Under the pieces are notes generated by a model. It worked only from the letters and a program-made list of their open reading frames with translations. It did not search any database and was not told the DNA's origin. Of a stretch of DNA of 64,000 bases, positions 3,013 through 21,425 are shown piece after piece. The stretch is taken from NCBI GenBank assembly GCA_024234615.1, contig JACKNY010000001.1, forward strand, positions 1,030,334 to 1,094,333. The letters are read 5' to 3'. A program made the position numbers and the translations under genes. The DNA comes from Pseudomonadales bacterium (GTDB lineage Bacteria; Pseudomonadota; Gammaproteobacteria; Pseudomonadales; IMCC2047). The stretch's first letter is position 1. Each line of letters opens with the position of its first letter.

Positions 3013-3744
3013 ATGCGATATCTAAAAGGAAGCGGTTACCCATCTTTAATAGTCACGCTAATGCTAGCACTGCTGGGGCTTCCCTCTCTCTCATCGGGCA
3101 CCACCAGTCCACAGCTCATCGAACAATTGGTGGAAGGTGAAGTAACCCGACAATTGGAAGTTCAACATATCCGGCAGCGGCCGGGTCAAAGGGTTAGTTT
3201 CCAACTTTCTCAAATTGACCCAAGGCTGCGTCTTGCCGACTGTGGAGCGCCCATCACTGTCGATTTAGGTACAGGCAAGTTGTTGGGGCGTGTGACTGCC
3301 AAGGTTGAGTGTAAAAGTCCGTCACCCTGGACTATCTATGTTCCGCTGACGATTCAGGTCTTCAAGAAAGTGGTCACTATTCGCGCTCCTGCCACTGCCG
3401 GAAAGCTATTAGAGCACAACGATTTGCAGCTGAGTGAGCAGGAAGTGTCGTCCTTAACGCAGGGCTACTTCACCCAAATCAAGCAAGTCTCAAACAAGCT
3501 ATTGAAACGTTCGATAACAATGAATGGTGTTATTACACCAAGGATGATTGAAGAACCAAAGGTGGTAAAAAAAGGAGATGAGGTAATGATCGTCGCTACC
3601 AAGGGGGCATTATCTGTAAGGAGCCCTGGCGTTGCGCTCAGCGACGGCCGTGTTGGTCAACAAATCAGTGTTAAAAACAGCGCAACGAAGCGCATTGTAA
3701 AGGCAAGAGTAAAGCGAAAAGGCTTGGTTCAGGTCACCATTTAA
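3013..3744 (+). CDS. flgA: Flagellar P-ring assembly chaperone FlgA
   Basis: It is divergent from flgB and precedes flgM. It has a signal-like N terminus (MRYLKGSGYPSLIVTLMLALLGLPSLS) and a C-terminal SAF-like segment (KKGDEVMIVA...VALSDGRVGQQISVKN). The start is uncertain, because the track ORF begins at a TTG at 2932. Confidence 0.8.
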   Translation: MRYLKGSGYPSLIVTLMLALLGLPSLSSGTTSPQLIEQLVEGEVTRQLEVQHIRQRPGQRVSFQLSQIDPRLRLADCGAPITVDLGTGKLLGRVTAKVECKSPSPWTIYVPLTIQVFKKVVTIRAPATAGKLLEHNDLQLSEQEVSSLTQGYFTQIKQVSNKLLKRSITMNGVITPRMIEEPKVVKKGDEVMIVATKGALSVRSPGVALSDGRVGQQISVKNSATKRIVKARVKRKGLVQVTI

Positions 3745-3838
3745 TTCTGCCCAAGTACACCCTTGATTGCCGCGAGACTGAAAATTTGAATTACCAAGGC
3801 ATATTGATAATATAGGACGCAGCTATCTTGAATTCTGC

Positions 3839-12370: not shown

Positions 12371-12447
12371 GCTCCGGTGGCACAGCTGGATAGCGCAGCC
12401 CCCTCCTAAGGGGCAGGTCGCAGGTTCGAATCCTGCCCGGGGCGCCA
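12371..12447 (+). tRNA. tRNA-Arg (anticodon CCT)
   Basis: It folds by hand into a cloverleaf. The acceptor stem is GCTCCGG/CCGGGGC (one G-U pair). The anticodon stem GCCCC/GGGGC carries loop CTCCTAA. The T arm is GCAGG-TTCGAAT-CCTGC, followed by discriminator G and an encoded CCA. Confidence 0.9.
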
Positions 12448-13022: not shown

Positions 13023-13358
13023 GTGTTCAATGGAGTCAGTGTGGCTTGGATTTATTTAATACTTGCAGGGCTATTTGAAATAGGTTGGCCTGTAGGCCTA
13101 AAAATGGCTCAAGAAGACGGTACACGCATTACGGGTGTACTCCTAGCAATTGTCTTTATGAGTGCTAGTGGTTTACTTTTGTGGTTGGCGCAGAAAGAAA
13201 TTCCTATTGGGACATCTTACGCAGTTTGGACTGGTATTGGTGCTGCAGGTACGTTCCTGGTTGGTATAATTTTCTATGGTGATCCGACCAGCTTGGCCCG
13301 CTATCTCGGCATAATATTAATCATTACAGGCGTTGCTACATTAAAGCTGGCACACTGA
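13023..13358 (+). CDS. sugE: SMR-family small multidrug resistance protein, SugE/Gdx (guanidinium exporter) type
   Basis: 111 aa with 4 TM segments and AWIYLILAGLFEIGWPVGLK plus IGTSYAVWTGIGAAGT, matching SugE signatures including the membrane Glu. It uses a GTG start 5 nt after GAAGGAG. Confidence 0.85.
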   Translation: MFNGVSVAWIYLILAGLFEIGWPVGLKMAQEDGTRITGVLLAIVFMSASGLLLWLAQKEIPIGTSYAVWTGIGAAGTFLVGIIFYGDPTSLARYLGIILIITGVATLKLAH

Positions 13359-13594: not shown

Positions 13595-13626
13595 TGGTGC
13601 CGGAAGAGGCCGGGGCCGGATTTGAA
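13595..13626. repeat. Degenerate copy of the tRNA-Leu 3' end (candidate distal att site of the island)
   Basis: TGGTGCC-ggaagaggc-CGGGGCCGGA-TTTGAA here compares with TGGTGCC-CGGGGCCGGA-ATCGAA at 21339-21361. The 7-nt and 10-nt blocks are identical, the last 6 nt match 4/6, and this copy has a 9-nt insertion. Confidence 0.5.
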
Positions 13627-13866
13627 AATCACTTCAACTTGTTGAAATAAAAGATAAATATTTAAAATTTCCATTGTTTTGTGCTGACAATTATACCGTC
13701 AAAATAATATTTTAATAATTTTTGGGAATCGAATTGCGTAGTTTTATAACCTTTCGCTTGTGATTTTTATTTATTGAGCTTATGTATGGCAATTGGGGGG
13801 CTGAGTGTCTCAGTTCGGCCATAAGCGGACGTTCTAGTGAAGTTATAAATCAATTCTTTAGCTCTG

Positions 13867-15069
13867 TTAGGACCTACTTTTTACAAATCGTCGAATTGAA
13901 CCACTTTGCTTTTCTTGAATGCGGTGCTGTGCCCAAGGGTGGATGCCCATTATTTCATCGTCTCGGCATATATTTCTATTTATGAGATAATTGACAGCAG
14001 GGTTTATCCGTCTGGGGCTCCAATCAAACTTTTCTGCAATTTCAGTTAGACTTGTTGGAAAACGTTCATCATTTAGAATAGCTGAGGCCATTCTTAGAGC
14101 GTCTTTGTCAGGCTCCCACCCCATAAATGCTTTATCAAACTCCACAAATAACTCATTTTCAGGGATAATACTGTAGTGCTCTTCTTTGAAAAATGGTCTC
14201 AATTCATAAAGCCCATCTTCTATGTCTTTTTGGGTTAGCCCTGTTTCTTGAACTAAATCATCCATCTCAAGCATTGGGTCATGACTGGTTCCTGTTTCTG
14301 ACTTTGAACAAAAAACGTTAGCAATAGCTGTTGCAGCCACACTAAAACCGGTATCTGGCAATTCTTCATCTATAGGTGCTTTCCCTAAGGTGGGCTTTTT
14401 TGAAATTCCATGAATATCGTTTATCAACTGAGATAGGTCGAGTTCTTCAGTGACCTCAGGACTAAAATGTCCCGATAACAGAGCTGGTAATTTTTCGTGA
14501 GAAAGATTAAAACGTAATGGAATAAATTTGCACTTTTTGTCAAGCATGCGCACTAAACCTGCATCCATTTCCTGTTTAACCCAAGGTTTCTGAATAGCTG
14601 TTGGCGATAACAAAACAATAAAATGCGTGCAAGTACCTAACCCGTCATCAATACGCTGACGAAGGCTATCACCGGAAGCAATTTCCCATTCAGCCCACCA
14701 CGTATCGATCCGGTTACTCATAAGTTCATTAGCAATTTTTCCAGCTAGATCATGATCCTCCCAACCAAAACTAAGGAATACTTTTGGTGACAATACTTTT
14801 CTCCTCTCAACAAAATTCACACTTTTAAGCTCTTCTTCAGGTATTTTACTGCGTACGTGCTGAATAAGCTCTTTTGAACCTTCAACTTTCACAGACAAAT
14901 TATTCAAGTCGTTTCCATAAACTACAACCGTTGGGAATTCTTCTGTTTTAGGATGACGAATAGACCGAAGGCGTTCCGCAAACTCAACCTTAGCTATTTG
15001 TGTAACTCTATCTATTATGCTTTTTTGAAAGTCGCCAGCGTTAAATTTCTTACCGTTAAAAGTCAACAT
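13867..15069 (-). CDS. TIR-domain protein (N-terminal unknown domain, TIR, then a C-terminal region with two winged-helix-like segments)
   Basis: 400 aa. Residues about 95-195 read KVFLSFGWEDHDLAGKIANELMSNRIDTWWAEWEIASGDSLRQRIDDGLGTCTHFIVLLSPTAIQKPWVKQEMDAG. These are the bacterial TIR blocks (FxSxxxxD, GDSL, vLLSp...S.WvxxE). The candidate catalytic Glu167 codon is at 14569-14571. Confidence 0.85.
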   Translation of the reverse strand: MLTFNGKKFNAGDFQKSIIDRVTQIAKVEFAERLRSIRHPKTEEFPTVVVYGNDLNNLSVKVEGSKELIQHVRSKIPEEELKSVNFVERRKVLSPKVFLSFGWEDHDLAGKIANELMSNRIDTWWAEWEIASGDSLRQRIDDGLGTCTHFIVLLSPTAIQKPWVKQEMDAGLVRMLDKKCKFIPLRFNLSHEKLPALLSGHFSPEVTEELDLSQLINDIHGISKKPTLGKAPIDEELPDTGFSVAATAIANVFCSKSETGTSHDPMLEMDDLVQETGLTQKDIEDGLYELRPFFKEEHYSIIPENELFVEFDKAFMGWEPDKDALRMASAILNDERFPTSLTEIAEKFDWSPRRINPAVNYLINRNICRDDEIMGIHPWAQHRIQEKQSGSIRRFVKSRS

Positions 15070-15336
15070 AACTCAGTAACCAGCTCCGTAAAATTACCTA
15101 TAAACCGAAAGAAACATGTACTGTTCCATTCACGTTTCTTAAAGAAATATGCCTATCATTTCTTGTTGTTAAAACCTTCTTGATATTCACAGGCTTGTCC
15201 ATGAATGTTCACAATTAACCGATAGCGCTATTTCACTTCACTAAAATCGATCATCCAGAAAGTAGCGAATGCGGTATATAAAACCTTAACAAAAGTCTTT
15301 TTTTGAATACTTCAGTTAACGGCGGGGAGCAGACAT

Positions 15337-16194
15337 TTAATTTTTACTCTGACCCCGAACGATTGACCCCGAACGATTTGACTTGTTAGGCATTTTCTTT
15401 TGTTGCTCTCTCTGTCGCTGCCTTTCTCTTTTAACATAGCTCGCATCAACTAATTCTTCATGATCCAGTTGTAGAGCACAATTCATCACTTCTGAGATCG
15501 AATTATCCGAAAGCTCAAAGTTTTCTGGAATTAAACCAAATTTACGTCCACTATTCTCCTGGAGTGCGGAAAACAGAGCCCGTAGAAAATCTATCTTAGA
15601 TGGCCTGCTCGAAGCAGTTGATGCTTCTGTAAGTGAATCGGTAGCGTAAATATCTGCACTTCCAGCATCCAGACCTACTTCTGCTACTACCTCCTCTATA
15701 CTAGGCCAGTACTTTAGATCAAATTGGTGTTTTATATGACTTAATGGCTTTTTGATGTAGCTACGGTACAAGAAATTATCTTTCGACGCGTTCTCTATAA
15801 CATTAATAATGCTATAGTGGGTGCCACTAGAAAAACCTGAATGATTATGGAGTTCATCACGCCTCTCTAATAGGCCGACTAGCTGTTGTGCTACTTTAGC
15901 AATTTGTCTGTTTACTTCAAATAGTTCTTTCCTTTCAGTTCTGTAAGTGGCTGCTTTTTTCGGATTCCAAAACGCTGCACAAGACAAAACTAACGATAGA
16001 AATACTTCAATTTGTTGCTCGTTAAGTGATTTGGACAATTCGGCATATACATATTTCATGTTTTCCTTGTTATTAAGCAGCCGATCGATGACGCCATTCT
16101 CACTAGGTAAAATGGAATGCGCGATATTATAAGCCATAGATTTGCGAAGGATTTCTTCACATTTTTCTGTTGCTGTGGTTTGGTGTTCAGTCAT
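15337..16194 (-). CDS. Hypothetical helical protein with an Arg/Gln/Lys-rich C-terminal tail (island cargo)
   Basis: A long ORF. The preferred start is the ATG at 16194 (MTEHQTT), preceded by AAGGAGA. The track ORF extends to 16293. The tail reads KRERQRQREQQKKMPNKSNRSGSIVRGQSKN. I recognise no family. Confidence 0.55.
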   Translation of the reverse strand: MTEHQTTATEKCEEILRKSMAYNIAHSILPSENGVIDRLLNNKENMKYVYAELSKSLNEQQIEVFLSLVLSCAAFWNPKKAATYRTERKELFEVNRQIAKVAQQLVGLLERRDELHNHSGFSSGTHYSIINVIENASKDNFLYRSYIKKPLSHIKHQFDLKYWPSIEEVVAEVGLDAGSADIYATDSLTEASTASSRPSKIDFLRALFSALQENSGRKFGLIPENFELSDNSISEVMNCALQLDHEELVDASYVKRERQRQREQQKKMPNKSNRSGSIVRGQSKN

Positions 16195-16369
16195 TGGTAT
16201 TGTTCTCCTTATCGATAAATACCTTTCACACCAACAATTATATTTTCCAGAAATAGCTCTGTCGGTAACTGAAACTAAATTATCTTTACGCAATTCAGGT
16301 ACTTGTCCCTAGAATACCTAACGAGCCGCTAAAGAGCCGTAGTGCAGCAGCTGCACTTTTTGCGGTTTG

Positions 16370-17410
16370 TTATGAACGTTCTTTGCATTCAATCTCCCAA
16401 AATAATGCTCCAACGTCTTTAGATAGTTTTTGAATAATATGCTGCATGACGAGTGAATCAATATTGGGGTAGATTTCTAACAATCCAATTGAAATTTGAG
16501 TTAGAGACAGGGCTGTCAGGTCGGCAGGGTCGGTCATTCCTGAATTGCTTGGGCCGACTAATAGAACCTCCTCCTCTGCTTCAACCAAGCCAAGCTTATT
16601 TTTAATTCCATGCACATTTGCATGAACATTTTGGCTCGGCCATTTATAATAAGGGCGCAAGTGATCAAGCTCGACAGCTTCTTCCAGGCAAGAAAAATTA
16701 GGTCTTTTGTTGTTCAATGCTTCTGCTGCCCACCCATAGCTCTCTTTAAAATCTTTTCCGTACTTATTAAGCGCCTCGTCACGTGCCAATTTGCACTCGC
16801 GCAGCTCTACTTCGGAAAACCTTTCAACATTTAATCTTGGCTCATATTTATTGTACTGGACCATAGCTTTATAAGATTCAATTACTTCATGCTCAAAATA
16901 CCGAATAGCAAGTTCATTCCCATGATCAATTAAAAATAAAGCAGTGACTACCACCTCGTGCAAAGCACGCCATCTCGCATGCGCTGCATCAGCAAAACCG
17001 CCTTTAAGAAGCCAGAGTATTTCCGAAGAGATATGACAAGCCCTGGCATGCAAGCGAACTACTAGATCGAACTGTATGTTCTGCTCTTTGACTGCAAGTT
17101 CTCTATTCGTGTTATTGAATTCACTACCTGCCTCGAGGCATACGGAAATCAATATTTCAATGGCATCAAAACCCTTCTTCCACCTTTCAATATTTCTATC
17201 TACGAAACCATCTGCGTCGTCACGGTTTAACTTTAGTGTCTCTTGAGCATTTTCTTGCAGTGAATCAACAATGCCGTCAGCTATTTCTGGAACAGTGTCG
17301 CGAATCACATCTGAAACAAGGGGATACAATTCCTTTTCTGACAAATCTTTCTTCGCATTCTTGAGTGCATCGTCTAATATCTTCTCAAATATGCTTTGGA
17401 GACTATCCAT
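16370..17410 (-). CDS. Hypothetical all-helical protein, reminiscent of DUF5677-type proteins (island cargo)
   Basis: 346 aa. The central block RLHARACHISSEILWLLKGGFADAAHARWRALHEVVVTALFL resembles what I recall of the DUF5677 core. This assignment is from memory only. Confidence 0.55.
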   Translation of the reverse strand: MDSLQSIFEKILDDALKNAKKDLSEKELYPLVSDVIRDTVPEIADGIVDSLQENAQETLKLNRDDADGFVDRNIERWKKGFDAIEILISVCLEAGSEFNNTNRELAVKEQNIQFDLVVRLHARACHISSEILWLLKGGFADAAHARWRALHEVVVTALFLIDHGNELAIRYFEHEVIESYKAMVQYNKYEPRLNVERFSEVELRECKLARDEALNKYGKDFKESYGWAAEALNNKRPNFSCLEEAVELDHLRPYYKWPSQNVHANVHGIKNKLGLVEAEEEVLLVGPSNSGMTDPADLTALSLTQISIGLLEIYPNIDSLVMQHIIQKLSKDVGALFWEIECKERS

Positions 17411-17473
17411 ACGTCAGCCTAGTTCACGCCGTAGCAAACGGCTGCGTTTTCGCGTGCGTATTTACCTGCATTG

Positions 17474-17842
17474 TTATGAGAAGTTAATAAGATCACCGTA
17501 ACCCCATATAATTGTGCCTATAGCTGCTGCTGTAAAAGATGTTAAAGATAAGGCTGTATGCAACTTGCCATACTTAATTCTCATTGGCCATAGATGCTCA
17601 TCCCATATGCCCGACATATAAATAAGCCCATGAATGGTGAATAGCATATATTCTGATAGGAGGGCAAGAAAGACCATGATAGAGCCACTACGTTGAAGCC
17701 ATGTTGCTATGGTTTCGTTAGCAGGCATTAAAATACCGATATAAGCAAGAGTAGGTATTGCCACTGCGCCCAAAAGAAGCAATCCACAAATTAGCAAAGT
17801 GGTTACAATTTTTCCTTCTTGTGTCGGAACTTCCGTACTCAT
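17474..17842 (-). CDS. Small membrane protein, about 3 TM helices (first gene of the island cargo)
   Basis: 122 aa with hydrophobic stretches IVTTLLICGLLLLGAVAIPTLAYIGILM, SIMVFLALLSEYMLFTIHGLIYM and ALSLTSFTAAAIGTIIWGYG. It is co-oriented with the three downstream cargo genes. Confidence 0.55.
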   Translation of the reverse strand: MSTEVPTQEGKIVTTLLICGLLLLGAVAIPTLAYIGILMPANETIATWLQRSGSIMVFLALLSEYMLFTIHGLIYMSGIWDEHLWPMRIKYGKLHTALSLTSFTAAAIGTIIWGYGDLINFS

Positions 17843-18073
17843 TGTTTAGTACTCATAAAACGTGATAGAACTGGCCCTTGCAGTCAAAAAGCAAAACTTA
17901 GTCTTTGTCTATAAGGTACGGGAGGAGGGGGTTTGGGAAACACTACCAGGTTACCTCCCTATATACCTCGATAATTGAGATCCTATAGTACAAGATCATT
18001 TTAGCATTGACCAACGTGATATGGTTTATAGGTGTTCTGCTACAAGTGTTTGTACGTGCTGTTGAAAAAAGCT

Positions 18074-18089
18074 GTCCACAAGTCCACAA
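18074..18089. repeat. Perfect tandem octamer GTCCACAA-GTCCACAA (with inverted partial copies at 18158-18165 and 18167-18174)
   Basis: Read directly: GTCCACAAGTCCACAA. The sequences TTGTGGAT and CTGTGGTC about 70 nt downstream are reverse-complement relatives, giving four CCACA(A/G) cores within about 100 nt. Confidence 0.6.
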
Positions 18090-18249
18090 CCCTTACCTTA
18101 TTGCGAAGTGAACCCCATTGCTCGCGCAGCCCGAACGATGATGTTTAGGTTACGTCGTTGTGGATCCTGTGGTCAGGTTTTCCGTTCTGAATGATCGCTT
18201 TAACTATATTTAATCCGCAAGGTGTCCGCTATTATTGGCTGAGACTCCG

Positions 18250-18965
18250 CTCTGCGCCATCGTCACTGCCGAGCGCAGCGGGGTAGTGACGATGGCCCCG
18301 TGCCAGAAACCACGACAGGTGCCGCTCGAATTTCCTAGTTACGGATAAGTTTTCTGTTCTTATACTTGGTGCTATCTATCGAATCTATCCGCACGCCACA
18401 GCGGAAATGTGGCAAGGGGCTCCCGCCCTTGCTTTGGCGAAACGGGAACGGCGTTATAGGGCATCATTGATGCATCAGCCGAAAGGCTGATTGCCCATAT
18501 TTCTCATCACCGTTTTAACGGTTTCTTTAACTCAGCGGGCCGTTGGTTCCGCATTATTTAAGAGGAGGTGATTACTTCACCATGACAGTGGACTCTTTAA
18601 TGAGTCAATTGGTTTGCATCCTACCGGCTCCAACAGGAGCACGGGGATGTCGCCTGAAATCAGGCATATTCAGATTGCAACGGGAGTCGTGTCCCGAGGC
18701 CATTCCGCGAAAGCGGGTCAGTAGGCTACGAGCCTGCGATTGGTCATAAACACTCACCAGAAAGCAACCACACGAGAAGATCTGAATCACCAATTGAAGC
18801 CGCTGTGCAGTAGTATCCACAGCGACAGTTACGACAGTCAAGCCAACCGGCTATCGCTACTGTATCCGCTTATTGATCCTGTAGGGAACGAACAATCAAA
18901 GCATGGATTTACTTTCGCCTGTTTTGTTGGGTAGCAAAAGTCATTCGAAACCGCTTCGGTCTGTG
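18250..18965 (+). ncRNA. Candidate structured non-coding RNA / long structured leader upstream of alpA (family not identified)
   Basis: No ORF of 80 aa or more occurs across about 1.15 kb (17843-19037), and the stretch is GC-rich relative to the cargo. Several perfect hairpins are present. 18256-18267/18285-18296 is a 12-bp stem. 18395-18413 pairs GCCACA with TGTGGC. 18412-18432 is a 7-bp stem. 18474-18491 pairs ATCAGCC with GGCTGAT around a GAAA loop. 18509-18522, 18652-18665 and 18681-18696 are further hairpins. 18705-18716 is CCGC-GAAA-GCGG, and 18950-18960 is another. The GAAA loops read as GNRA only on the + strand. Confidence 0.3.
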
Positions 18966-19037
18966 TAGGCTTTTGCCGTTGTTTTCTCCTTGTTATTGCC
19001 TAGCATAGAGACGCTAGACAAAAGCAAGGAGACGTAT

Positions 19038-19220
19038 ATGAGTTTCAGAATCTTAAGGTTAAAAGAGGTCCAGCAGGTGACAGGATTATCCCGTTCAACT
19101 ATTTATGCCGAAATCGCCAAAGGTAAATTTCCCAAGCAGGTGAAACTCACCGGTGCTCGCTCTGTCGGTTGGCCTGAAAGTGTTATTGTGCAGTGGGTTG
19201 AATCCCGGCGGCAGGTGTAA
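19038..19220 (+). CDS. alpA: AlpA-family (MerR-like HTH) prophage/island regulator-excisionase
   Basis: 60 aa: MSFRILRLKEVQQVTGLSRSTIYAEIAKGKFPKQVKLTGARSVGWPESVIVQWVESR, the canonical AlpA pattern. The ATG at 19038 is preceded by AAGGAG. Confidence 0.85.
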   Translation: MSFRILRLKEVQQVTGLSRSTIYAEIAKGKFPKQVKLTGARSVGWPESVIVQWVESRRQV

Positions 19221-19251
19221 GCACCTCCAACATTTGGCCTTTCGACCGGTT

Positions 19252-19539
19252 TTACTTTAATGCCTCCTCAATATCTTCACGGCTTATTATTCGCACAATT
19301 TCAGCACAAGCTTGGCTCTGTCGGTAATAGATCGAGTGCACGCCGTACACACTACGGCGGCATCCCTCCAAATATTGGTCAGCGAGGGGATACATAAAAG
19401 GGCTATTCCCTATTGCCTCGAATCGCTGCTCCATGCCTTCGGCGTAACATTCCGCTTGCTCATAGCCAAAGTTCTCTATTCCATATTGATAAAGTCTCGC
19501 ATAATCAGCTGCTGCTTTATTGGTCAGTTTATAGGTCAT
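19252..19539 (-). CDS. parE: ParE/RelE-family type II toxin
   Basis: 95 aa: MTYKLTNKAAADYARLYQYGIENFGYEQAECYAEGMEQRFEAI...IVRIISRE. The pattern is typical of ParE. It overlaps the upstream antitoxin gene by 4 nt. Confidence 0.85.
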   Translation of the reverse strand: MTYKLTNKAAADYARLYQYGIENFGYEQAECYAEGMEQRFEAIGNSPFMYPLADQYLEGCRRSVYGVHSIYYRQSQACAEIVRIISREDIEEALK

Positions 19540-19784
19540 TCACCTGTCCGCTTTCCGTCCCTGATATCCTGCCTGATCTGAGCAGGGGTTAACTCCGACA
19601 AACCGCTTTTGATACCTTCCTGCAGCAGGGCCCGGATCGCTTCTGCTTCCGAACTTTCTCTTCTCCTCGCTTGCCGTATCAAGTCGTTTACAACTTCGCT
19701 ATTGCTACCGTACTCCTTACTTTCTATCTGCGCTTTTAGCCAATCAGCATTGGGCTCGGTAATTGTGATGCTTTGTCTTGGCAT
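19536..19784 (-). CDS. parD: ParD-family (ribbon-helix-helix) type II antitoxin
   Basis: 82 aa: MPRQSITITEPNADWLKAQIESKEYGSNSEVVNDLIRQARRRE...ALLQEGIKSG. This is ParD/COG3609-like and is translationally coupled to parE. Confidence 0.85.
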   Translation of the reverse strand: MPRQSITITEPNADWLKAQIESKEYGSNSEVVNDLIRQARRRESSEAEAIRALLQEGIKSGLSELTPAQIRQDIRDGKRTGE

Positions 19785-19909
19785 GATATGACTCCAGTTA
19801 GTTGGTGTATAAATGTATCAATATTACACCATTTATGCACCATAAAAGCCACAATCGTTTTATCCCTTCATAATCAAAGAAAGCTCGATACAAACAAAGC
19901 ATGCAGCAA

Positions 19910-21139
19910 TCAAAGGTTATTAACCCTGGAAAAAAGCGGCACCACCTTATTGGTAACCCGCATTTCATCTAGATAATCGGCCCACCATTGCATCATCTTG
20001 TATCGTTCTTCCAGGTAACGAGCGTGGTGGGTATAGGCAGCTCTTACGCCGTTCCGCTCCTGGTGGGCCAGTTGGCGCTCGATAGCGTCCGGGTTAAAGC
20101 CAGATTCGTTCAGTATCGAAGAGGCGGTGGCTCTAAAGCCGTGGGGAACAGCTTTACTCTTGCCAGGATGTTTGCCGTCGTAGCCAAGCTTAAATATGGC
20201 CTGACGCATGGTGTTGTCGGACATGGGTTGGTCGCGGTAGCGCTCGGATGGAAAAATCAGTTCGTATTTACCGGTCATGCCCTGCAGTAGTTCGAGTAGA
20301 TCCAACGCCTGAGGGGCGAGGGGAACTAGGTGTTCGGTACTCATCTTCATACGGGCGGCGGGGATTCGCCATACTTTGTTTTCGAAGTCGAACTCGACCC
20401 AGCGTGCGCCGCGCAGCTCGCCGGAACGGACAAAGGTAAGCAATAGGAGTTTGATTGCTCGTTTCGTCAGCAAGCGGCCACCGTAGGTTTCCAGCTCCCT
20501 AAGAAATTGAGGAAGTTCCTCCCTGGGTAGGGAAGGGTGATGTTGCACTTTCCTTTGTCTAACAATGCCGTCCAGATCGCTAGCTGGGTTACGGGTGGCG
20601 ATGCCCGTTTGTATCCCAAATCGGCAAATAGCTTTAATGGCCTGCTTGACGCGATTAGCAACGTCGAGAGCATCTCGGGCTTCAATTTTTCGAATGGTTG
20701 CTATTACCTGCATGGGAGTAATTTCATCGATGGTCAGATATCCCAGATCAGCAAAGGCGTTGTCTTCAAGACGCTTGAGTACTCGGGCCGCGTGGGTAGG
20801 CGTCCAGGTAGCGCGGTAATGATCCCACCATTGGCGGGCGACTGCCTCAAAGTGGTACATTTTCTGCGCGCGCTTTTCCTCTTTGCGCACGGCGCTGGGG
20901 TCTTGATCGTTACTGATTTGAATTTTTGCTGAGCGAAGTTTTTCCCGTGCGTCCTTGAGGCTGACCTGGGGATAGATGCCCAGGGCGATGGTTTTGCGTT
21001 TGCCGCGAAAGCGGTAATCCATACGCCAGTACTTGTTGCCGTTCTTTTTGACCAGCAAATACATACCGCCGCCATCATACAATTTGTAATCTTTGTCGCG
21101 GGGTTTTGCATCCTTGATGTGGATATTCACCAGAGCCAT
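19910..21139 (-). CDS. int: P4-type tyrosine integrase (DUF4102 N-terminal arm-binding domain + phage integrase catalytic domain)
   Basis: 409 aa. The N terminus reads IKDAKPRDKDYKLYDGGGMYLLVKKNGNKYWRMDYRFRGKRKTIALGIYPQVSLKDAR. The C terminus has ...RSGELRGARW..., HGFRATASSIL and ...LAH...AYTH. It lies adjacent to, and co-oriented with, tRNA-Leu. Confidence 0.95.
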   Translation of the reverse strand: MALVNIHIKDAKPRDKDYKLYDGGGMYLLVKKNGNKYWRMDYRFRGKRKTIALGIYPQVSLKDAREKLRSAKIQISNDQDPSAVRKEEKRAQKMYHFEAVARQWWDHYRATWTPTHAARVLKRLEDNAFADLGYLTIDEITPMQVIATIRKIEARDALDVANRVKQAIKAICRFGIQTGIATRNPASDLDGIVRQRKVQHHPSLPREELPQFLRELETYGGRLLTKRAIKLLLLTFVRSGELRGARWVEFDFENKVWRIPAARMKMSTEHLVPLAPQALDLLELLQGMTGKYELIFPSERYRDQPMSDNTMRQAIFKLGYDGKHPGKSKAVPHGFRATASSILNESGFNPDAIERQLAHQERNGVRAAYTHHARYLEERYKMMQWWADYLDEMRVTNKVVPLFSRVNNL

Positions 21140-21338
21140 GTGACGTCACCTTTCCTTGAATTCCGTTGACGGTATATTCCTTAATTGAAACGAAATCACG
21201 TGTAAAGTACCGACAAATGGTTCGGCTGTCAATAAACGCTGTTGAACGTAATAGAAAGATAGGGTTGTCGTAACTTATTGTTTTTGTTTGTTTAATGCAG
21301 CTTATTGGACTTCTTCGGATTTTACCGGAAGATGTCAA

Positions 21339-21425
21339 TGGTGCCCGGGGCCGGAATCGAACCGGCACGATGTTGCCATCGAGGGATTTTAAGTCCCTTG
21401 CGTCTACCAATTTCGCCACCCGGGC
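21339..21425 (-). tRNA. leuZ: tRNA-Leu (anticodon TAA), integration target of the island
   Basis: The reverse complement is GCCCGGGTGGCGAAATTGGTAGACGCAAGGGACTTAAAATCCCTCGATGGCAACATCGTGCCGGTTCGATTCCGGCCCCGGGCACCA. It has a long variable arm, anticodon loop CTTAAAA and an encoded CCA. Confidence 0.9.

Follow-up and report, generated by a model that had tools for sequence, protein, structure and literature searches.

One important question raised by this locus is what a TIR protein assembled from three parts does for its host, and whether it acts alone. The window, that is, the whole stretch of 64,000 nucleotides analysed here (contig JACKNY010000001.1 of a Pseudomonadales bacterium), carries on its minus strand, at positions 13867..15069, a complete gene with an ATG start and a stop codon at 13867-13869 in the list of open reading frames (ORFs). 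It encodes a 400-amino acid protein composed of an N-terminal domain (N-domain), a TIR domain and a tandem winged-helix (WH) module. We read it, with a probability of roughly 0.6, as a single-protein anti-phage effector of the abortive-infection type, carried as cargo of an integrative island at a tRNA-Leu gene. It belongs to a widespread, unstudied family, probably a variant of single-protein TIR NADase defence. This reading is built on the domain identities, the conserved catalytic residues, the fold and portability of the WH module, the absence of a conserved partner gene and the mobile or defence contexts of the gene. Single-protein TIR and TIR-like NADases, which clearly parallel SARM1, plant TIRs and TEP1, make up a growing class of bacterial immune effectors; they differ in the sensor, which decides which phages are stopped.

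The ORF, its strand, its length and the peptide blocks quoted in an earlier note on this DNA, which was made from the sequence alone, were all borne out by direct reading. An identical protein is on record from a Pseudomonadales metagenome-assembled genome under the name "TIR domain-containing protein". In a family alignment of 49 homologues, from which the family profile was also built, the start MLTFNGK is common to the homologues, and invariant residues are present in all three parts of the protein. The full-length AlphaFold (AF2) model had a local confidence score (pLDDT) of 80.5 and a predicted TM score (pTM) of 0.59.

The central part of the protein, residues about 95-222 (14404..14787, minus strand), is a TIR domain of the AbTir/PdTIR/TcpB type according to Pfam, profile matches to PDB sequences and Foldseek. 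Pfam TIR_2 covers residues 97-199 (E 6.9e-22; 78.7 bits, against a curated cut-off of 28), well outside what chance would give, and this match is carried by 49/49 aligned homologues. The family profile retrieved AbTir (E 4.6e-21), BtTir, PdTIR and TcpB/BtpA from the PDB sequences (range 5e-21 to 1e-13). These are the closest TIRs both in sequence and in fold, and they share the K-x-W-x-x-x-E motif and the G-D-S-L-R-Q BB loop with the protein studied here. The structural comparison proposed in the earlier note was run and gave AbTir-type structures for the TIR domain, the full-length model superposing on AbTir, BtTir, PdTIR and TcpB with a Foldseek TM to target of 0.65-0.73.

The WxxxE motif occupies positions 14569..14583 (minus strand), from W163 (14581-14583) to E167 (14569-14571, with the codon GAA read at 14571-14569), and K161 lies just upstream. 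In the profile alignment, K161-P-W163-V-K-Q-E167 is placed on AbTir K202-D-W204-T-N-Y-E208, and the BB-loop residues G133-D134-S135 (14665..14673, minus strand) on AbTir G174-D175-S176. E167, G133 and S135 are invariant in the 49 homologues, and W163 and K161 are conserved in at least 90% of them. In AbTir, E208 is the catalytic residue, W204 of the WxxxE motif is required for cyclisation of ADP-ribose (ADPR), K202 touches the diphosphate, the G174A and S176A changes kill the activity, and active sites are assembled across two neighbouring TIR subunits (bioRxiv 10.1101/2022.05.07.491051). Since E167 falls on the catalytic Glu of AbTir and is invariant in the family, the intact catalytic Glu claimed by the earlier note is upheld. 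By every sequence criterion the domain is assigned to the TIR_2/AbTir-like group, and an NADase activity is predicted for it; the enzyme is also predicted to be able to yield a cyclic product, the cyclisation Trp (W163) being kept. The surroundings of the domain differ from those of its relatives. In AbTir and BtTir a coiled coil forms the N-terminal part and the TIR the C-terminal one (bioRxiv 10.1101/2022.05.07.491051), whereas here the TIR is central, between family-specific modules, and neither the N-domain nor the tandem WH is seen in AbTir, BtTir, PdTIR or TcpB (the profiles of both modules match no PDB sequence).

A flexible linker (residues about 223-235; 14365..14403, minus strand; pLDDT <50 for residues 222-234) separates the TIR domain from the C-terminal module. 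When residues 236-400 were modelled alone together with 23 homologues, AF2 gave a pLDDT of 94.8 and a pTM of 0.87. The modelled elements are a helix, a short strand, two helices and a beta-hairpin; this series occurs twice, and a terminal helix closes the chain. The secondary structure of the model thus places a first winged helix (WH1) at residues about 243-304 (14158..14343, minus strand), a second (WH2) at residues about 320-388 (13906..14112, minus strand) and, behind them, a conserved basic C-terminal helix ending in ...RRFVKSRS (13870..13905, minus strand; helix 391-399 in the model), in which R393 and R394 are invariant. The model therefore supports a fold class of two winged-helix units plus a tail for the C-terminal 165 amino acids. 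The top named Foldseek matches in the PDB were all winged-helix proteins, the best being tandem-WH modules, with SelB WH3-WH4 first (E 3.2e-03) and ESCRT-II, ScpB, UFL1/DDRGK1, Stn1 and Mga among the others; against viral structures, the named matches were Zalpha domains, MarR, RepL and other helix-turn-helix (HTH) proteins. All these scores are marginal (E 1e-3 to 0.1, TM about 0.3). SelB WH3-WH4, ScpB, ESCRT-II, Stn1 and UFL1/DDRGK1 resemble the module in having two consecutive WH units, but with no sequence similarity the resemblance is one of fold class only. The WH-module profile matched no PDB sequence. No Pfam HTH family reached threshold, and the sub-threshold signals (HTH_Mga at 3e-06, HTH_Crp_2 at 2.5e-05, MarR_2) differ from member to member, so membership in any particular winged helix-turn-helix (wHTH) family is not supported by the sequence.

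Does this module bind nucleic acid? The earlier note had pointed to two wHTH-like segments and to putative nucleic-acid binding. The segments map to the third helix of WH1 and to helices 2-3 of WH2, and the winged-helix fold was confirmed by the model and by Foldseek; the binding is unsupported, WH1 being strongly acidic. Its mean net charge over the 49 homologues is -6.6 +/- 2.5, and its "recognition" helix (residues 280-289) has a charge of -4, with D282, D285 and E289 invariant, which would speak against classical DNA binding by WH1. The corresponding basic helix of WH2 is +3 across the family, with W350, R353, R354, N356 and R365 invariant, and the tail RRFVKSR is also +3; the WH module as a whole is net negative. 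WH2 and the tail could contact nucleic acid, a protein partner or a small ligand, or form internal salt bridges. The DNA-binding wHTH transcription-factor families (MarR, Crp, GntR, Mga and others) were considered and rejected, given the lack of an above-threshold profile and the opposite charges of the two helices (-4 in WH1, +3 in WH2).

The most serious competitor of our reading, although an unlikely one, is that the TIR is triggered when the tandem wHTH binds a nucleic acid, be it phage DNA, RNA or some unusual structure. The fold itself would fit, as would the best Foldseek match, since SelB WH3-WH4 binds SECIS RNA, the Z-DNA/Z-RNA-binding Zalpha domains among the viral matches, the weak but recurrent HTH_Mga, HTH_Crp_2 and MarR_2 signals, and the conserved basic charges of the WH2 helix and the RRFVKSR tail. 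Yet these resemblances of fold score only marginally (E 3e-3 to 0.1), the protein-binding tandem WHs of ScpB, ESCRT-II, UFL1/DDRGK1 and Stn1 match equally, and no HTH family was found at the Pfam threshold. The acidity of WH1 and of the whole module points the other way, the invariant acidic and basic residues could pair inside the fold, and the closest functional precedent, the WH of Swarozyc (see below), binds a phage portal protein. For our abortive-infection reading we lean slightly towards a phage protein over nucleic acid as the trigger.

The role of the module is better approached through its distribution. A protein search gave 617 matches, of which the best 120 are almost all full-length (399-406 amino acids, 45-76% identity, 100% query coverage) and are named at most "TIR domain-containing protein". 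Full-length relatives are present on megaplasmids of Methylorubrum, Sinorhizobium, Bradyrhizobium and Sphingomonas; in phage genomes, no copies of the family were found beyond TIR-only matches. Species-representative genomes were scanned with the tail motif ...RRFVKSRS as pattern, and 49 loci were obtained, 40/49 with the three-part form and 9/49 with a TIR-WH form. They span Alpha-, Beta-, Gamma- and Deltaproteobacteria, Acidobacteriota, Longimicrobium and Binatia in a patchy phylogenetic spread; most hosts are free-living and come from the sea, soil or wastewater. The architecture described in the earlier note as unusual, shared by more than 120 listed full-length homologues and by 40/49 of these loci, is, hence, not rare.

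Searching exhaustively with the WH-module profile widened the picture to 741 cluster representatives at E <= 1e-3 (434 at 1e-10 and 91 at 1e-30). The best 150 of these 741 were classified with local HMMs (hidden Markov models) for the three parts. N-domain, TIR and WH were found together in 31 (about 400-440 amino acids), TIR and WH without the N-domain, the most frequent form, in 56 (some 40 of which are complete proteins of about 305-337 amino acids), and TIR, TIR and WH in one. The shorter TIR-WH form is therefore, as judged from these clusters, at least as common as the three-part form. In about ten proteins, the WH module stands behind other domains: DUF4062 in P0292, AbiJ_NTD3 and a protein kinase in P0314, Schlafen-AlbA_2 and HATPase_c_4 in P0375, and an N-terminal region without a Pfam match in seven proteins. 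In P0359 a nucleotidyltransferase is added after the WH module. Reused with several effectors, the module thus acts like a portable part for sensing or assembly. In conflict systems, a domain that persists while its enzyme partner is exchanged is usually a sensor or a regulator, and this established pattern suggests such a role here.

A precedent for this kind of arrangement is Swarozyc (KpSwz), a DUF4062 TIR-like NADase with a C-terminal HTH/winged-helix AUX domain; its AUX domains ring the phage portal side by side, NAD+ hydrolysis is switched on and abortive infection results (bioRxiv 10.64898/2026.05.01.722283). Swarozyc and the protein studied here are both single proteins with an NADase in front and a WH at the C-terminal end. 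In P0292 a WH module of the type found in the window is located behind DUF4062, which is the position of AUX in Swarozyc, and the analogy is strengthened by this arrangement. The effectors differ, DUF4062 there and a canonical TIR_2 here, with no DUF4062 match. Homology between the two sensors was rejected: the KpSwz sequence was recovered via its Vibrio homologue, and its stalk and AUX region gave an hhalign probability of 0.4% against the WH-module profile. Likewise, that profile had no KpSwz match at E <= 10 in a PDB sequence set containing KpSwz. KpSwz was not among the top 50 Foldseek PDB matches either, in a fold library that ends on 2026-04-08 and may not contain it. To judge from its sequence, AUX seems to contain one WH only, with a hairpin as anchor, in contrast to the tandem module here. 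Hence, portal sensing would not be transferable to the N-TIR-WH family.

Other precedents share the TIR only. The TIR NADase SpbK (B. subtilis ICEBs1) is reported to interact with YonE, a protein of SPbeta. Of 32 TIR systems from E. coli that were tested, 12 protected against phages, and 12/12 needed the TIR active site (Nat Commun 2024, PMC11350192). SpbK and the E. coli systems TIR-II, V, VI and IX are, like the protein studied here, stand-alone TIR proteins on mobile elements; they act by abortive infection and require the TIR catalytic residue. The E. coli single-protein systems recognise varied phage components (PMC11350192). The E. coli proteins carry TPR, transmembrane, AAA or DUF4238 regions or TIR only (PMC11350192), and no relationship to them was seen beyond the TIR; no WH module was found on enterobacterial plasmids.

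The neighbourhoods of eight loci, with homologues 46-100% identical and the island of the window included, were compared. Their neighbours are unrelated and no conserved partner gene was found in 8/8, and all eight lie in a defence or mobile context. Besides the window's own island, these comprise a locus with IS21, an integrase, PIN_12 and DUF5677 (L004); Neiella marina (L005), where the TIR homologue is cargo of a Tn7-like CRISPR-associated transposon; an Ensifer locus with ThsB-TIR, Nmad2, patatin and MazG genes; an Afipia locus adjoining a type III CBASS operon; one locus with a ThsB-TIR plus SLATT and a resolvase; another with BrxR/WYL, GmrSD, HNH-helicase and Mrr; and a locus where the gene directly adjoins Tn7-like TnsA/TnsB/TniB/TniQ genes (L013). 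The Neiella homologue is flanked by TniB, VspR, a helicase and DUF3644 on one side and by TniQ and the Cas proteins Csy2, Csy3 and Csy4 on the other. DUF5677 is nearby in 2/8 loci (the window and L004); those proteins and the intervening genes are unrelated in sequence, so the co-occurrence looks like ordinary defence-island co-location. The candidate partners in the window, orf318, the DUF5677 protein and a 122-amino acid ORF, were rejected, as they have no similarity to the L004 neighbours and no signal with the TIR, WH or N-domain profiles. Given that the eight loci share no partner gene, we interpret the TIR gene as a one-gene unit, cargo of defence islands and mobile elements, and here the earlier note, which had proposed a self-contained unit, was right.

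The same neighbourhoods bear on a second alternative, an improbable one, according to which the protein is a ThsB-like signal generator: a cyclic ADP-ribose (cADPR) isomer or a related nucleotide would activate an effector encoded elsewhere, and the protein would not itself deplete NAD+. The conserved cyclisation Trp, weak matches to ThsB profiles and two loci that adjoin ThsB-TIR, SLATT, Nmad2 or patatin genes are in line with it. The comparison with ThsB that the earlier note called for gave a shared TIR fold and such weak profile matches: ThsB_TIR scored 21.5 bits against a cut-off of 21.2, over only 40 residues, and the PADLOC ThsB models gave E-values of 5e-08 or weaker. However, no adjacent ThsA-type gene (SIR2/SLOG or Macro) was found in the window or in the eight homologous loci, nor is any other gene consistently adjacent, and the neighbouring ThsB/SLATT pairs look like separate systems. 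ThsB identity was therefore rejected, since there is no ThsA and the match at threshold covers only 40 residues, and the lack of a conserved receptor or effector gene in the vicinity makes a Thoeris-like role unlikely. Of the possibility raised in the earlier note that the architecture is a common, already annotated ThsB subtype, only "common" holds: the protein is no ThsB, and the annotation goes no further than "TIR domain-containing protein".

Identity with other catalogued systems was likewise rejected. The best PADLOC matches, PDC-S66 (1.3e-19, 68.7 bits) and bSEFIR (5.3e-12, 44 bits), are both single-gene systems, and both matches are partial, low-scoring and driven by the TIR. For PDC-S66 only profile positions 141-272 of 282 match, in 49/49 homologues as well. 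bSEFIR is defined by an N-terminal SEFIR match stronger than the TIR match; here the Pfam scan gave no SEFIR family, and the strong TIR_2 match lies in the middle of the protein, not at its N-terminus. The retron-TIR (type XII) profile of NCBIfam scored 52 bits against a cut-off of 600, in the TIR part only.

For the abortive-infection reading we propose the following course of events. The tandem-WH module with its basic terminal helix would be the sensing and assembly part and would recognise an infection-specific trigger. This recognition would bring TIR domains together, active sites would form between the clustered neighbours and NAD+ would be consumed; with the loss of NAD+ the infected cell would stop, and no further phage growth would follow. 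The products may include a cADPR isomer besides ADPR and nicotinamide, given that the aromatic residue for ADPR cyclisation is kept. Several points weigh against this reading. To judge from their sequences, the WH module is not homologous to the AUX domain of Swarozyc. The conservation of the module (mean column identity 59%, with many invariant charged residues) is more typical of a conserved-ligand site than of a fast-evolving surface for protein recognition. The geometry between the domains is uncertain, as the pTM of the full-length model indicates. The defence context rests on the eight loci and not on a genome-wide enrichment statistic. Moreover, no family member has been the subject of an experiment, and the literature and databases hold no name beyond "TIR domain-containing protein"; no description of a TIR-tandem-WH family was found in the literature, which is weak evidence since subscription journals are sparsely covered.

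Very improbable, finally, is a role outside defence: the protein could be an NAD-linked transcription regulator whose wHTH domains bind host or island DNA, an addiction toxin serving mobile elements, or a Tcp-like effector directed at eukaryotes. One may cite for it the nearest TIR sequences, TcpB/BtpA, deposited in the PDB as a Brucella immunosuppressor, the fact that wHTH modules are typical of regulators and the constant location of the gene on mobile elements. It is poorly supported because the bacteria concerned come from the environment and because typical immune effectors of conflict systems (DUF4062, AbiJ_NTD3-kinase, Schlafen) carry this WH module too; WH1, moreover, is acidic and no conserved secretion signal or partner antitoxin was found.

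The portability of the module leads to a bolder proposal, which we put forward tentatively and hold at less than even odds: the WH module with its RRFVKSR tail may be an unrecognised infection sensor shared by at least five effector types (TIR, DUF4062/NIR, AbiJ_NTD3-kinase, Schlafen-AlbA_2 and unknown domains), which would then make up a new single-protein immune family with a common trigger. If this is true, the invariant charged residues would fit a conserved small-molecule or nucleic-acid cue of infection, unlike the variable phage proteins recognised by Swarozyc and SpbK, and the optional N-domain and the paired paralogues described below would provide regulation at a second level. Another modular TIR defence protein will not surprise a specialist, and no current view is overturned; the value of the family, which is large and unstudied, lies in a well-defined and testable candidate. 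Its sensor module is compact, confidently modelled and reused with unrelated effectors, so that finding the trigger would add a recognition principle and would explain hundreds of genes annotated only as "TIR domain-containing protein".

The N-domain (residues 1-94; 14788..15069, minus strand; AF2 pLDDT about 77-86) is family-specific and optional in the wider family. Its predicted order is beta-beta-long helix-beta-beta-helix-helix-beta, and G6, P40, E44, F45, P46, E63 and S65 are invariant. It has no match in Pfam or among PDB sequences, in agreement with the earlier note, which could not place it; DUF6959 gave recurrent sub-threshold matches in 11/23 members. The search for N-domain homologues found it only in fragments of the same N-TIR-WH family, and about 40 TIR-WH representatives lack it. 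It might be an optional accessory, either regulatory or providing a second input for oligomerisation or sensing. A set of "DUF1883 domain-containing" TIR proteins (H11-H15; Burkholderia glumae and Gordonia plasmids) align from query residues 40-54 on, that is, from about 40 residues ahead of the TIR, and the retron-TIR profiles of NCBIfam and PADLOC begin to match at query residues 60-61. These starting points suggest that the last third of the N-domain may be a TIR-associated extension common to other TIR families. P0291, a protein of 277 amino acids, lacks the TIR, its N-domain (E 1e-19) running straight into the WH module (E 1e-53); conceivable explanations are a decoy, a regulator, a decayed copy or a derivative that has lost the TIR. 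A second candidate for this form, P0212 (287 amino acids), looked similar by eye and was rejected, only its WH part being significant.

In four betaproteobacterial genomes (Zoogloea twice, Thiobacillus and Burkholderiales), a long N-TIR-WH gene is immediately preceded, on its own strand, by a short TIR-WH gene (318-335 amino acids) (L036 1268-3477, L039 1268-3477, L050 1268-3462 and L057 1244-3486). The paired paralogues are 48-53% identical and WxxxE is kept in both; they may represent a two-gene, hetero-oligomeric version of the system. On pTiBo542 (L011), positions 3234-3800 match WH2 and the tail only (module residues 72-161, 37.5% identity). The match is split over two small adjacent ORFs annotated as "hypothetical protein", beside a zeta-toxin gene, and a match of this type occurs on 32 Agrobacterium Ti-type plasmids. 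It is probably a decayed remnant conserved across Ti plasmids.

Upstream of the TIR gene there is a gap of 267 nucleotides (15070..15336, minus strand), in which the earlier note had seen palindromes and, from them, a regulated promoter of the gene's own. The gap and both palindromes exist, namely an inverted repeat at 15109-15118/15131-15140 and the palindrome TTTCTTTAAGAAA. Both are at chance level for so AT-rich a stretch: an inverted repeat of 10 nucleotides as good as the observed one turns up in 38% of dinucleotide-preserving shuffles, and a short palindrome of equal quality in 18%. A search of the gap revealed no sigma-70-like site on the coding strand. Nor is the gap conserved: homologues begin 3-131 nucleotides after unrelated upstream genes, the overall range being 3 to 267 nucleotides. 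With palindromes at chance level and a gap that is not conserved, the promoter inference fails.

The island that carries the gene extends over about 7.8 kb (13596..21425) and is low in GC (0.38-0.41, against 0.48 in the flanks). Its right end is the tRNA-Leu gene (21339-21425), preceded by a P4-type integrase (19910-21139), ParE/ParD (19252-19784) and AlpA (18990-19220). The left end (13596-13626) keeps only a degenerate attachment-site copy of the tRNA-Leu 3' end, 15/17 identical to it in the core CCGGGGCCGGAWTYGAA, and this suggests an old or eroded integration. Just outside the island lie tRNA-Arg (12371-12447) and an SMR transporter gene (13023-13358). Between AlpA and the cargo genes, a segment of about 1.1 kb (17843-18990) has a GC of 0.45-0.49 and no ORF >78 amino acids, and no RNA gene was found there in an Rfam gathering scan. 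Upstream of the TIR gene and on the same strand are orf318 (15337-16293, no family match), the DUF5677 protein (16370-17410, E 1.7e-31) and the 122-amino acid ORF (17474-17842), whose product looks like a membrane protein by its sequence; these three could form a separate cargo module. The 3' end of orf318 contains, at 15350-15377, a perfect 14-nucleotide tandem duplication (TGACCCCGAACGAT twice), which encodes a repeated ...RSGSIVRGQS... C-terminus.

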